Source: Synechococcus sp. (GTDB lineage: Bacteria; Cyanobacteriota; Cyanobacteriia; Thermostichales; PCC-7336). Taken from it: a DNA stretch of 64,000 nt. Location: positions 11,140 through 75,139 of the forward strand of contig JBFRWN010000076.1 in assembly GCA_051439605.1 (NCBI GenBank). The letters are read 5' to 3'. The translations under genes were made by a program, and so were the position numbers. Below the pieces are notes generated by a model. It was not told where the DNA came from and ran no database searches. It saw only the letters and a program-made list of their open reading frames with translations. This document shows positions 33,766 to 48,096 of the stretch, piece after piece; position 1 is the first letter of the stretch; each line of letters opens with the position of its first letter.

Positions 33766-33805
33766 TTTGCACATTTGCTGCGAGTCCCCTCTAGACATCT
33801 GTGGC
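33766..33805 (+). promoter_or_regulatory. Candidate alternative-sigma promoter or operator, copy 1
   Basis: TTTGCACAT-N15-TCTAGACATCTGTGGC; 31/40 identical to the copy at 41156. Confidence 0.55.
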
Positions 33806-33856
33806 AGGGGGCATCATCTGCTCTGCCACTGAAGTTTTTCCCAAAGAGCAACCTCC

Positions 33857-34345
33857 ATGAACGGATTAACGATCGAGCGGCCCACCCGCCCCGACAGTAC
33901 CCTCCTCAACTCCGGTCAGCCCTCTCTGACCCGCTTAGGGATCGATAGCGGTCAGCTACTCGGAGCCCTGTCCTGGCTAATGCTTAACTCACCACTGCAT
34001 CGTCTCTACACCCTAGAGAACTTAGAGCGACGCATTTTGCCTGGAGTCTTTCACAATCAATATCGGTTTTATCGACAGGGCGATCGCCCGGTGGGATTCG
34101 TGAATTGGGCTTGGCTGACCGCAGACTGCGATCGCCAGTTTTCCACCGGCACCTATGACTTAGACCACCAGGACTGGGTAGCGGGCGATCGGCTGTGGTT
34201 CCCCGAACTGATTGCTCCATTCGGACACGCTCGGGCGATCGTGCGGGATTTGAGAACCAACGTCCTGCCTAAAGGTACGCCAGCCAAAGCATTGCGCATC
34301 AATCCAGACGGCTCCCTCAGATCCGTCGCTCGTTATCGCATCTAG
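33857..34345 (+). CDS. RTX toxin-activating lysine acyltransferase (HlyC/RtxC family)
   Basis: WLMLNSPLH (conserved Ser/His), PVGFVNWAWL, DW..GDRLWFPELIAPFGH. Confidence 0.92.
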   Translation: MNGLTIERPTRPDSTLLNSGQPSLTRLGIDSGQLLGALSWLMLNSPLHRLYTLENLERRILPGVFHNQYRFYRQGDRPVGFVNWAWLTADCDRQFSTGTYDLDHQDWVAGDRLWFPELIAPFGHARAIVRDLRTNVLPKGTPAKALRINPDGSLRSVARYRI

Positions 34346-34473
34346 TTACCGAATCTGACCGTAGCAAATCGACATTCACTCGATCGAGATGCCCCGATTT
34401 CGCTCGGCATCGAGGTCTCAACTTGGCAACCGGTAATTCTGCAATTCACTCAACACATTGAAGGAGATTTCCC

Positions 34474-44375: not shown

Positions 44376-46955
44376 ATGAGCCCCCGAGTGAAAGTTGCGA
44401 AAATCTTGTTTGCTGCCGAGGACTTTTTTCAGGAACAAACCAGTCGAGTCTTTGTGCAGTTGTGGGAAGCTGGCGAGCAGACTCAACGGACCTCAGGGGC
44501 TCGTCTGAATGCCGACCCGAAAATTTTAGAGCTGTACGAACAATGGCGCCAAGCCTACAAGAAGTATTACCGTCACTTGAGTCTCAGAGATGATTTTGAG
44601 CCGTTGGGAACGGTCAATCGCACGCGGGAAGAAGATGCGATTGACCTAGAGCAACTGAAGGGCGAACTGCAGCACTGTTCTCACCGGCTCGTCAGCCAAT
44701 TTAACGACTGGTTGAGTACTCAACCGGAGTTTCGAGAGGGGGTTGAAAATTGGTTGGGCGATCGATTCAACCTTGATGACGACGAAATTCGAATTGCGAT
44801 TGAAAGTGACGATCCCAATGTTAGACGCCTGCCCTGGCAAGCTTGGAAATTACTGGAGAGATTCGATCGCGCGGAGCTATCGATTGGCGATACTTACCAC
44901 GACAGCCGCAAAAAGCCACCAGCCAAGACAAAAGGCGATCGCCTCAAACTGCTCGCAGTCTTTGGCTACGCAGGAGGATTGAACCTAGATGAGGATCGTC
45001 AAACAATTGCAGGGTTACCCAATATCGAGGCAGAGTTCTGTGTACAGCCTTCTTTACAGGGGCTAAAAACAATTCTGCGCCAAGAACCCTGGGATGTGTT
45101 CTATTTTGGCGGTCACAGTTCTAGCGATTCTCTGGGTCAAACGGGAGTACTGTACCTGGACTCTCAAACGCCGATTGCCATCTCCCAATTAAAAGGGGCA
45201 CTGAAAACGGCCGTGCGGGATGGGGGACTGCAGCTGGGTATTTTTAATTCTTGCGATGGATTGGGGTTAGCTGCCGAATTAGAAGACGTCCATTTCCCTC
45301 TGTCGATTGTCATGCGGGAACCCGTGCCCAATGTAGTGGCTCAGCGGTTTTTGAAATATTTTTTGCAAGCTTACACTCGCGGCAAGCCTCTATATCTGGC
45401 TTTACGACAAGCACGACTCTTGCTAGAAGATGACAGCGAAGAGCTCCCCTACGTGCATTGGCTGCCCGCCATTGCTCACGACACCTCCACCAACCCCCTC
45501 CTTTGGCAGGATTTCGTCTCAGAGCAAGAGTCTCAAAGTCCCAACCCTCACCGTTCTGTTCCTCAGGATCTAACTCCTCCTGGAACAGTGCCCACTCGCT
45601 TACGAGACGCATGCCCATCGCAACCCGAGAGGGTTCCCACCAAACTTGCCGGTCCTCCTCCAATCGCAGAGACCGTTCGCACCTTCACCCCCACAACCCT
45701 TCTGGGGGGGGCGTATGAAGTCATTGACAACTTAAGTAGCGGAGGCTTTTCAGTCACTTACTTGGCCAGAGCTTTAGATTTGCCCGGACAGCCCCACTGC
45801 GCGATTAAACAGCTCAAGCCCATCCCCCTCAATGCGGACATGGCTCGAGCTCGACAAATGTTCCAGCGGGAGGCAGAAATTCTATTCAAGCTGGGCTCGA
45901 GCACCGATCGCATTCCTACGCTCTACGCCTCGTTTGAGCAAGAGGGAGAGTTTTATTTGGTGCAGGAATATATTGGGGGGGAAGAACTGGGACAAGAACT
46001 GCGGCGACGGGGACGGTTGAGCGAATCAGAAACGCTGGAATTACTCAAGGATATTCTTGAAGGCCTGGAAATCGTTCACAACCAAGACATTATTCACCGC
46101 GATATCAAACCCTCAAATTTGATGCGTCGCAAGTCTGATGGAAAAATCGTGCTGATTGACTTCGGGGCAGTCAAGGATGCAATAACAATCGCGGCTGCGC
46201 CCGATACGTCTAGCGTGCAAAGGGGGGCCAGCGTAGTGGGGTCACCTGGATTTATGGCCCCCGAACAGTCCTTGGGTCACCCGCAGCAGTGCAGCGATAT
46301 TTTCTCGGTGGGCTCGGTGGCGATTTGGGCAATCACGGGTCAGCCACCTATCCAGTCCATATCCAGCGAAGGGGTGACCGGAGCACTCGTGCGTCGCGAT
46401 CGGGTGCAGTTGAGCGATGGTATGGCAGAACTGCTCTATCGGATGACAGATGAGGAGAGTCAGAACAGGTTTGTCGACGCGACCGAAGCTCTGCGGGCTG
46501 TCAAGCAGTTAAGGGACAGGAATCCCAAACGGCAATCTCCCACTGCCATTTCACAGATAACAAGTTCGGAGACTCCTGTTTCGTCGCGCTCTGCTTCCAG
46601 ACAGTCCTCTCGCTTGAGCACCTGGGTGACGATTGGGATTGCAGCACTGGCAGTCTTGGGGGGAGGTTGGTTGGCGTGGATCCTGCTGTTTAAGCAAGAT
46701 TTAGAAATCCTACCGGTAGAGCCACCACAGGAGATAGAACCATCACCCACTGAATCTCTCCCCCCTGACAGTCAGTTTTGTCCGGGACCGCTATGTCCCA
46801 GGACTTCTACAACGGAGCCCATATCTCCTCAAGATGGACAGCTTGGCAATCCGAGTTCGTCGAACGATGTCCAACCTGCAGAGCCGATATTTCCGCAAAC
46901 AGGAGAACCCGCTGACAGTCAGTTTTGCCCGGGGCCGTTGTGTCCCAATCCCTAA
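44376..46955 (+). CDS. CHAT (caspase-like) domain, Ser/Thr kinase, TM and Pro-rich tail
   Basis: LPWQAW, FYFGGHS (His), IFNSCDG (Cys), VMREPV; SGGFS, AIKQL, HRDIKPSN, DFG, APE; TM WVTIGIAALAVLGGGWLAWILLF. Confidence 0.9.
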   Translation: MSPRVKVAKILFAAEDFFQEQTSRVFVQLWEAGEQTQRTSGARLNADPKILELYEQWRQAYKKYYRHLSLRDDFEPLGTVNRTREEDAIDLEQLKGELQHCSHRLVSQFNDWLSTQPEFREGVENWLGDRFNLDDDEIRIAIESDDPNVRRLPWQAWKLLERFDRAELSIGDTYHDSRKKPPAKTKGDRLKLLAVFGYAGGLNLDEDRQTIAGLPNIEAEFCVQPSLQGLKTILRQEPWDVFYFGGHSSSDSLGQTGVLYLDSQTPIAISQLKGALKTAVRDGGLQLGIFNSCDGLGLAAELEDVHFPLSIVMREPVPNVVAQRFLKYFLQAYTRGKPLYLALRQARLLLEDDSEELPYVHWLPAIAHDTSTNPLLWQDFVSEQESQSPNPHRSVPQDLTPPGTVPTRLRDACPSQPERVPTKLAGPPPIAETVRTFTPTTLLGGAYEVIDNLSSGGFSVTYLARALDLPGQPHCAIKQLKPIPLNADMARARQMFQREAEILFKLGSSTDRIPTLYASFEQEGEFYLVQEYIGGEELGQELRRRGRLSESETLELLKDILEGLEIVHNQDIIHRDIKPSNLMRRKSDGKIVLIDFGAVKDAITIAAAPDTSSVQRGASVVGSPGFMAPEQSLGHPQQCSDIFSVGSVAIWAITGQPPIQSISSEGVTGALVRRDRVQLSDGMAELLYRMTDEESQNRFVDATEALRAVKQLRDRNPKRQSPTAISQITSSETPVSSRSASRQSSRLSTWVTIGIAALAVLGGGWLAWILLFKQDLEILPVEPPQEIEPSPTESLPPDSQFCPGPLCPRTSTTEPISPQDGQLGNPSSSNDVQPAEPIFPQTGEPADSQFCPGPLCPNP

Positions 46956-47435
46956 GAACGTTGCAATAGATAGAGTAGTGCGAAGCCAGAGATCGCTGCT
47001 GACACTCTGCAAACATTCACCAGACAACAGCGCTCTGTTGTTGAGAGTTGAGCATATCAGCATCCTTTCCCCACTAGATATTGATGATGTAAGGGAACTA
47101 CTCAAGCGACCTGTAATGCGACACTTCCTGTGCTCGGGAGCTTGCTCTGGAAGGGCATAGTGGAATCGGATTGATACAATTCCATCCATCTAGGGCAATC
47201 GTCAAGTCGTTGAGGACCTGTCAGCTATTCAGACCTCTGATGAGCATATAGCGACTGTCAAGTTGCTTAGGACATTTCAGCGACCCCATTCCCTGGTAGA
47301 GCATAGATCGCTTGTCCTAACTGAAATGTTAAGAGCTATAGGTCTATCGATCCAAGCTAAAACTGTCCAGCTGTGAGGCAGGCAACCCTCTAAATCCGTT
47401 TTGCTTTTCCCGCTTTCCTCTAGTGGAGTCTATCC

Positions 47436-48035
47436 GTGCAAGCTCAATCTTTATTAACCGGTTTCACAGCTGCGATCGCTGCCATTGCTCATCTGGCCCT
47501 AACACTCCCTGCACAAGCCAGTGAAACCAAAATATTTTGTGGGATTCACAATGGGTATCCCACCACAATTGTTTCCTCGCCCCAATACGAAAACTTGCCT
47601 ATCATCGGTTGGACTTCGCAGTACTTTGGTCCCGAATACACACCGCAAACCCGTTGCGAGATTGTGTCACAGCGCTTTCAAGAGTTTATGGATCGGGGAG
47701 TGTTGGTTAATCTGACAACGGGAATTCTCAATGGCTACCCTGTGATCTGTGCAACTCCAGTACAGGGTGGAAGCTGTGATGGCAGACTGCTAATCACCCT
47801 CAAGCGAGGAGATAATTCTCGCCAGCGCTTGCAAGATATCCTCAATGTCTCAACCGGTCGGGGGGATACTATTTATGAAACTGGAGGCAGAGTCTACATT
47901 GATTTCCAGGACATGTTGCTTCAAAAAGCTGCTGACCTATCTGCAACACCCGCAGCAGAAGTACAGGCTTTACCAACTAGCGAGCAAGACCGTGGCCGAA
48001 GTGGTTTTTGCCCCGGTCCTCTTTGCAATGAATAA
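47436..48035 (+). CDS. COP23 domain exported protein
   Basis: Signal peptide; IFCG..GYPTT, W.S.YF...YTPQTRCEIVSQRFQ, G.LNGYPVIC, C..LLITL. Confidence 0.85.
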   Translation: MQAQSLLTGFTAAIAAIAHLALTLPAQASETKIFCGIHNGYPTTIVSSPQYENLPIIGWTSQYFGPEYTPQTRCEIVSQRFQEFMDRGVLVNLTTGILNGYPVICATPVQGGSCDGRLLITLKRGDNSRQRLQDILNVSTGRGDTIYETGGRVYIDFQDMLLQKAADLSATPAAEVQALPTSEQDRGRSGFCPGPLCNE

Positions 48036-48096
48036 GGGTTAATGAATAAAGGTGTAATGAATAAGAGGGTCATGCATGAGGGGGTAACGAATCAGG
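48027..48096. repeat. Decaying ~15-bp tandem repeat, 5 units
   Basis: AATGAATAAGGGTT / AATGAATAAAGGTGT / AATGAATAAGAGGGT / CATGCATGAGGGGGT / AACGAATCAGG. Confidence 0.8.

Follow-up and report, generated by a model that had tools for sequence, protein, structure and literature searches.

A computational study published in eLife in 2021 (PMC8195603) described neighbourhoods of EACC2-caspases that hold a sigma factor of the extracytoplasmic function (ECF) type and DUF1822; according to its text, these two are followed by a protein that combines a constant N-terminal domain, a caspase/CHAT domain and a variable C-terminus, and a kinase is among the variable C-termini listed. Passages of PMC9457339 and PMC13342950 supply a tested cyanobacterial precedent from Anabaena PCC 7120, in which the CHAT protease HetF cuts PatU3, and the sigma factor HetZ, inhibited by PatU3, drives the patU promoter. 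Systems of another kind, hlyCA and the MARTX pair rtxC-rtxA (PMC3034196, passages on gene order and repeats), have an acyltransferase gene directly before a repeats-in-toxin (RTX) gene, and in class IV contact-dependent inhibition (CDI) the TAAT-family enzyme CdiC lipidates the surface protein CdiA for binding another cell (PMC8510554, passages on CdiC). Here we describe a locus of Synechococcus sp. (assembly GCA_051439605.1, contig JBFRWN010000076.1) in which an hlyC-RTX pair stands ahead of a sigma/DUF1822/EACC2-CHAT cassette. We propose that the cassette's sigma factor reads a promoter-like element present in four copies and that hlyC-RTX was recruited as one output in the host genome, with a probability of roughly 0.5.

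Layout of the locus and comparison with known systems

The window, that is, the whole stretch of 64,000 nucleotides analysed, is part of contig C76 of a genome of 4.9 Mb with 51% G+C and 4208 GCGATCGC sites. Named homologues are cyanobacterial. All nine co-oriented genes reported in a preliminary description of this DNA were found as plus-strand open reading frames (ORFs) and checked against Pfam. The features are as follows:

33857..34345, + strand: HlyC/TAAT-family acyltransferase, 162 residues (PF02794, 2e-34)
34474..37602, + strand: RTX-type repeat protein, 1042 residues (Pfam RTX repeats and HCBP)
37613..37644, + strand: 14-bp hairpin, likely terminator of hlyC-rtx (sequence)
37778..39388, + strand: exported trypsin-like protease with FGE/C-type-lectin-fold domain, copy 1 (His/Asp/Ser motifs intact)
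39406..41079, + strand: trypsin-FGE paralogue, copy 2 (58% identical to copy 1)
41246..41608, + strand: small protein of 120 residues with signal peptide, no family (Pfam/profile searches, N-terminus)
41814..43070, + strand: divergent sigma-70/ECF-like factor, 418 residues (family profile, alignment, fold model)
43121..44308, + strand: DUF1822, 395 residues, candidate anti-sigma factor (Pfam 3e-54)
44376..46955, + strand: EACC2-CHAT protease with Ser/Thr kinase, one transmembrane helix and Pro-rich outside tail (Pfam, motifs, hydropathy)
47436..48035, + strand: COP23 protein with signal peptide, ending FCPGPLC-N-E (48006) (Pfam, motif search)

The run probably comprises several transcription units, given the hairpin behind rtx.

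That sigma, DUF1822 and CHAT genes recur together in cyanobacteria, as the preliminary description stated, agrees with PMC8195603, and the cassette itself was thus already described in 2021. The window protein combines the kinase with a transmembrane helix and a tail; the usual cassette has a CHASE2 or other sensor end and DUF928 where the window has the kinase-transmembrane-tail part and COP23. The text of PMC8195603 mentions no COP23, HlyC, RTX or promoter, although its source data may hold kinase/COP23 cases, and it classes DUF1822 as a TPR protein. Our model of the DUF1822 protein in the window differs from this, with an alpha/beta domain and a C-terminal beta-sandwich. With HetF/PatU3/HetZ, as presented in the passages cited, the locus shares a membrane CHAT protease, a divergent sigma factor of about 400 residues and a candidate inhibitor gene directly downstream with a putative sigma-driven promoter.

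The hlyC-RTX pair resembles hlyCA and rtxC-rtxA (PMC3034196, same passages) in gene order, 18-residue C-type repeats, Gly-Lys motifs and predicted type I export. Exporters are linked or unlinked among the RTX toxin operons compared, and unlinked here. Unlike those systems, the window RTX protein has no pore-forming or effector region and is one third of MARTX size, and the pair features a Leu/Pro-rich spacer, Glu in place of the catalytic Asp, and many Gly-Lys repeats. CdiC-CdiA shares the TAAT enzyme; however, it uses two-partner secretion and a C-terminal toxin (PMC8510554, same passages), and the window has nothing alike.

A promoter-like element in four copies

A 40-bp upstream element had been noted at 33766 and 41156. 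It is real, but two copies were an undercount, since four are present:

33766..33805, + strand: copy 1, TGCACA-N16-TCTA within TTTGCACAT-N11-CCCCTCTAGA, 91 nt before hlyC
41156..41195, + strand: copy 2, located 90 nt upstream of the small gene
42953..42992, + strand: copy 3, within the sigma gene and 168 nt upstream of DUF1822
47049..47088, + strand: copy 4, intergenic, 387 nt before COP23

Copies 1 and 2 (E 2.7e-4 genome-wide) agree at 28 of 28 conserved positions, the next best site reaching 20. A matrix built from these two copies alone and scanned over 9.78 million genome positions placed the COP23 site at rank 3 and the DUF1822 site at rank 18; the same matrix revealed no element before rtx, both trypsin genes, the sigma gene or the kinase gene.

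Copy 3 sits at the same codon position as a motif seen throughout the sigma family. In an alignment of 57 sigma genes (50 rows in register, all from other cyanobacteria, used and 7 divergent ones dropped), TGCATA-N16-C(G/C/A)TA occupies silent codon positions inside the genes. Silent third positions agree in 47, 50, 45 and 40 of the 50 rows, against 23, 29, 18.5 and 9.1 expected from codon usage. The motif is matched in 38 of these rows and in 11 of 16 families, and the top of 378 codon columns is its -10 position (z 11.7). Among the 13 columns with the strongest bias, five belong to the motif and four others to Ala-Ile codons, which we read as GCGATCGC sites. The conservation of the internal element across the family is an observation. 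Outside the sigma genes, TGCAYA-N16-YVTA precedes 24 of 804 neighbouring genes (0, 8, 5, 11, 3 and 4 with other spacers), mostly 55-110 nt ahead of the gene start; signal-like N-termini are found in 14 of these 24 and in 185 of the 780 others, and one of the genes so preceded is an RTX gene (L067). These data suggest that the element is probably a promoter read by the sigma factor. Its layout resembles that of ECF promoters.

No sigma-70 consensus is present at the element, and TCTAGA was ruled out as a HetZ-type -35 box, as no TGnA lies at 16-17 nt. The motif was found before 3 of 52 sigma genes at spacers 15-18 and before none at 16, and before 0 of 46 COP23 genes elsewhere. Among 34 other hlyC genes only that of L022 is preceded by the exact motif; in L021 a variant with a 17-nt spacer stands before the lead gene, between sigma-DUF1822 and the hlyC run. 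An unbiased search for repeated upstream words in the 57 sigma loci was too blunt. A literature search for the motif together with sigma factors and cyanobacteria returned nothing relevant by title and abstract.

The leader of copy 2 is homologous to the hlyC leader down to ATGAAC, so that the entire 90 nt, and not the two boxes only, are shared. This would suit an insertion of hlyC-rtx behind a copied small-gene leader, the copies being duplication relics or sites of another regulator, with no sigma control. The same explanation draws on the patchiness of hlyC-RTX (present in 10 of 401 class genomes and in none of the 6 from the same family), on how poorly the local sites score with the family matrix, and on a second sigma/DUF1822 cassette on contig C65. 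Nevertheless, conservation between copies 1 and 2 runs in blocks (all 9 positions agree in the first, 3 of 11 in the second and 20 of 21 in the third), copy 3 falls on the family motif's codon position within the sigma ORF, and the C65 cassette region has no such site. We consider the leader-copy explanation unlikely.

The sigma factor, DUF1822 and the CHAT-kinase

The sigma-like protein matches no Pfam family and RpoS only weakly (0.0017), and TIGR02937 is matched by 52 of 54 aligned members of its family. With its fold model (pLDDT 67), Foldseek returned sigma factors at E 0.003 or weaker, and VIA gave them Z scores of at most 7.3, with an ISWI domain on top at 7.6. A six-residue insertion at the sigma-4 recognition helix may have shifted the site preference of this protein. 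The HetZ family model NF037963 does not match it, HetZ matches in four genomes are separate from the DUF1822-linked sigma factors fetched, and the HetZ promoter (TCCGGA/TGnA in the passages of PMC13342950) differs from TGCAYA-N16-NNTA of the window.

A fold search with the DUF1822 model gave weak Ig-like matches only; both DUF1822 and PatU appear to end in a beta-rich domain. No experiment on DUF1822 emerged from a full-text literature search, which yielded two papers. In the CHAT-kinase the catalytic dyad His247/Cys293 and the kinase motifs HRDIKP, DFG and APE are intact, and the single hydrophobic helix lies at residue 753. Residues 1-380 align with CHAT-CHASE2 and other cassette proteins, the name EACC2 being given by position.

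DUF1822 occurs in 251 of 401 cyanobacterial genomes. Sixty regions were sampled from the best 150 of 634 matches plus some others, a set that leans to the canonical subfamily, and the profile recovered the gene in 59 of them. A sigma gene lies directly upstream in 52 of the 59, an EACC2-CHAT gene directly downstream in 20, and both in 15. In 17 of these 20 DUF1822-CHAT regions the gene after CHAT is DUF928; in the usual form the CHAT protein ends in CHASE2 or another sensor, and DUF928 comes next. COP23, trypsin and hlyC genes were found in 0 of the 60 regions, and other RTX-repeat genes in 5. A metagenome scan made with close sigma factors gave only 3 short contigs.

Several variants of the cassette were seen. 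The second one, on G000 contig C65 (12098-18554, L058), is longer; its sigma gene has no internal motif in register and its product may read another promoter. Long cassettes like it occur in three same-genus genomes (L051-L053), and both of those scanned have CHAT-CHASE2. Many cassettes (L083, L094, L096, L098, L099, L110, L116) encode, directly 5' of the sigma gene, a second CHAT protein, which is soluble and 440-520 residues long, and L098 also has a serpin. In L077, L080-L082, L090, L074, L102 and L113, sigma-DUF1822 stands without CHAT; its neighbour there is a Tll0287-HAMP protein, in many cases together with a solute-binding protein, and may be an alternative input to sigma-DUF1822.

A proposed circuit

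According to our proposal, DUF1822 would keep the sigma factor inactive until a signal at the outer tail of the CHAT-kinase, possibly acting via COP23 and the exported trypsins, brings receptor molecules together. DUF1822 would then be cut by the CHAT protease, a step for which, by analogy, we see the chances as evenly balanced, and the freed sigma factor would transcribe hlyC-rtx, the small exported gene and COP23. The promoter inside the sigma gene would drive DUF1822 and the receptor, resulting in negative feedback. The RTX protein would be acylated by HlyC at its Gly-Lys lysines, exported through an unlinked type I system and displayed as a surface adhesin that bears lipid.

The earlier idea that the membrane CHAT-kinase frees the sigma factor has a tested precedent in HetF/PatU3/HetZ (PMC9457339 and PMC13342950, passages cited above), but no homology between DUF1822 and PatU was detected. 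As the sigma factor also falls outside the HetZ family, this precedent serves as a working analogy and not as a case of membership.

The cassette could instead be a counter-invader system, as PMC8195603 proposes; section 9 of that paper suggests activation by autopeptidase activity. CHAT would then cleave itself, with the kinase as effector, and DUF1822 would act as scaffold or co-activator and not as an anti-sigma factor that is cut. Sets of CHAT, sigma factor and kinase do occur in type III CRISPR loci (bioRxiv 10.1101/2023.06.23.546230), EACC2-CHAT follows DUF1822 directly in the 20 of 59 regions only, and stand-alone CHAT-kinase orthologues exist. On the other hand, the genes preceded by the motif mostly encode exported proteins, not defence effectors, and a sigma-driven internal promoter before DUF1822 would fit a feedback-controlled inhibitor, compare patU. 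A counter-invader role seems improbable to us.

Linkage of the two modules

The preliminary description regarded the locus as a conserved new system. The neighbourhood survey contradicts this: the locus joins two modules, hlyC-RTX and sigma/DUF1822/EACC2-CHAT, and is not one conserved new system. In the survey of cyanobacterial genomes, the nine-gene order was found in this lineage only. The one further case of adjacency is L021 (Phormidesmis), in which sigma-DUF1822 is divergent from a small exported gene followed by hlyC-RTX, with an EACC2-CHAT gene beyond. This single case is weak evidence because genomes hold several cassettes.

A number of results speak against sigma control of hlyC-RTX as proposed here. 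Linkage is rare: hlyC and the cassette adjoin in 1 of 30 other hlyC loci and in 0 of the 60 DUF1822 regions, and five genomes carry both with DUF1822 at best 70 kb distant or on a different contig. Same-genus CHAT-kinase orthologues (57-58% identical) have neither an adjacent sigma/DUF1822 pair nor the FCPGPLC tail, and the trypsin-FGE pair of the window carries no element. Out of 18.2 bits on the family matrix, the four sites of the window reach only 1.6-5.7. The host genome shows no enrichment of the plain family pattern (42 matches vs. 34-46 with other spacers), and the p-values are overstated, as the genomes are related. A score of at least 12 bits is reached before 1 of 34 other hlyC genes vs. 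6 of 258 other genes. HlyC carries Glu at the catalytic Asp position. The DUF1822 and PatU profiles match with a probability of 0.2% (the PatU profile holding 4 sequences), and the sigma factor matches HetZ only at the last helix-turn-helix (42 columns, 24%). The earlier suggestion that the sigma factor switches on hlyC-rtx gains support in the host genome, where the four-copy element is in register with the family motif; the figure of 1 in 34 speaks against a general link.

The FCPGPLC peptide and COP23

The preliminary description also pointed to a shared FCPGPLC peptide. It occurs three times in the 25,406 ORFs of the genome, each time at this locus: at the end of COP23 and twice in the kinase tail.

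46776 and 46923, + strand: FCPGPLC copies in the CHAT-kinase tail (motif search)

The first kinase copy and the COP23 copy differ in 6 of 7 codons, and because all these differences are silent, the comparison points to selection on the peptide. FCPGPLC does not qualify as a conserved motif: in 400 other genomes its DNA matches number 6, and each is antisense, out of frame or part of an unrelated protein.

Of 42 COP23 loci, 28 have a trypsin gene and 9 a kinase gene no more than about 6 kb away. The last two residues of kinase and COP23 are equal in 3 of 9 loci vs. 3 of 72 cross-locus pairs (Fisher p 0.016), the matching ends elsewhere being LW/LW, LF/LF and AF/AF. This small sample suggests that the two ends may be matched docking tags. 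At L218:6618-7865 a kinase beside COP23 has a repeated Pro/Thr tail ending Cys-x10-Cys, like the window tail in design but not in sequence. The function of COP23 is still described as unresolved in the text of bioRxiv 10.64898/2026.04.23.720389.

HlyC and the RTX protein

HlyC aligns to ApxC 4WHN at 1e-23 and retains Ser45 and His48; Glu117 stands where ApxC and the family have the catalytic Asp. The dyad of TAAT enzymes is His/Asp, and CdiC shows that an enzyme of this family is able to lipidate a surface protein for cell binding (both from passages of PMC8510554). In 28 aligned homologues Ser45 and Glu117 are invariant (28 of 28) and His48 is kept in at least 90%. Glu for Asp is a conservative change, and HlyC may be active.

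The RTX protein begins with a block of 18-residue repeats, continues with a Leu/Pro-rich spacer (about 430-630) and a second block with Gly-Lys-x-Asn repeats, and contains an HCBP domain. Of its 13 Gly-Lys sites, 11 fall within residues 714-912. Among the long RTX homologue ORFs listed, 27 in number, about 25 carry Gly-Lys-x-Asn in at least five copies (fewer than five in 3 plus one fragment; range 0-20). HlyB and HlyD, both above their cut-offs, are encoded side by side on contig C17, unlinked to the window. We judge acylation of the RTX protein somewhat more probable than its absence.

The term MARTX-like, used at first for this module, is appropriate for the 18-residue repeat alone and not for size, effector domains or pore-forming helices. 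The order hlyC-RTX is that of rtxC-rtxA, and 18 strict units, spaced by 18 or 36, fit the MARTX C-repeat consensus (as given in PMC3034196), which would be in line with a toxin, namely an acylated RTX protein inserting in the membranes of grazers or competitors as a minimal MARTX translocator or haemolysin. Yet the protein has 1042 residues vs. more than 3200 for MARTX, and scores 157 bits with the RTX_toxin model vs. a cut-off of 1000. Pfam and profile scans detected no effector or cysteine protease domain; it contains no Cys and no 19-residue window with hydropathy of at least 1.6, hence no hydrophobic helix. A toxin output appears very unlikely. As MARTX size, effector domains and pore-forming helices are all missing, an acylated adhesin is the better candidate.

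A single-sequence hlyC scan of genomes had returned nothing, and a profile of 28 homologues was used for the survey. It yielded 30 hlyC loci, 29 of them cyanobacterial or unassigned and one from Novispirillum. An RTX homologue is downstream in all 30, at most 300 nt away in 27, in the same ORF in 1 and at 1.9-3.6 kb in 2. The single ORF (L046:8968-13515, 1515 residues) is a fusion or an assembly error. The pair is plasmid-borne in Acaryochloris; Acaryochloris-type loci (L018-L020, L178) have two tandem hlyC paralogues with repeated upstream leaders ahead of one RTX gene, one copy being plasmid-borne. The HlyC tree left the donor unresolved. A literature search for hlyC or rtxC and cyanobacteria gave only reviews and unrelated work, although supplementary tables may list such proteins.

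Other features of the window

The two proteins first described as Tat trypsin-FGE proteins each contain Trypsin_2 and FGE-sulfatase domains in Pfam, with both trypsin triads intact; the twin-arginine translocation (Tat) motif is a variant, RRQLI. The 120-residue small protein has no family match, all its atlas matches being below 0.9. At 48250-51134 lie genes for a membrane protein, a solute-binding/VWA fusion and a small protein, the first two of which are kept in G001 with other upstream neighbours (L054); this segment is the right edge of a variable region. Further features are a perfect intergenic 25-bp inverted repeat with a 5-nt loop (31239-31293), a minus-strand ORF of 1561 residues (9719-14404) and low G+C (0.42-0.47) at 55001-58000 and 24001-25000.

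Implications

The cassette itself is known; new and testable are a predicted feedback promoter within the sigma gene, a predicted regulon of four sites, an hlyC-RTX family of Glu type and the tails that match between kinase and COP23. Taken together, these elements would describe a widespread protease-gated sigma switch with a feedback promoter inside the sigma gene and locus-specific C-terminal tags, here the disulfide-type FCPGPLC, that pair the membrane kinase with COP23. In the host genome its output would be RTX surface proteins with multiple acylations, a class not described so far, modified by a Glu-type HlyC clade and serving attachment rather than killing. That all parts of this picture hold at once is doubtful, and we offer it tentatively. 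A defined promoter, an internal feedback site and a local regulon of four promoters make the DUF1822 pathway testable by simple reporters. If the proposal is true, hlyC-RTX would represent toxin-type acylation on a protein without a toxin domain, and the matching tails of the kinase and COP23 would be a first handle on COP23.

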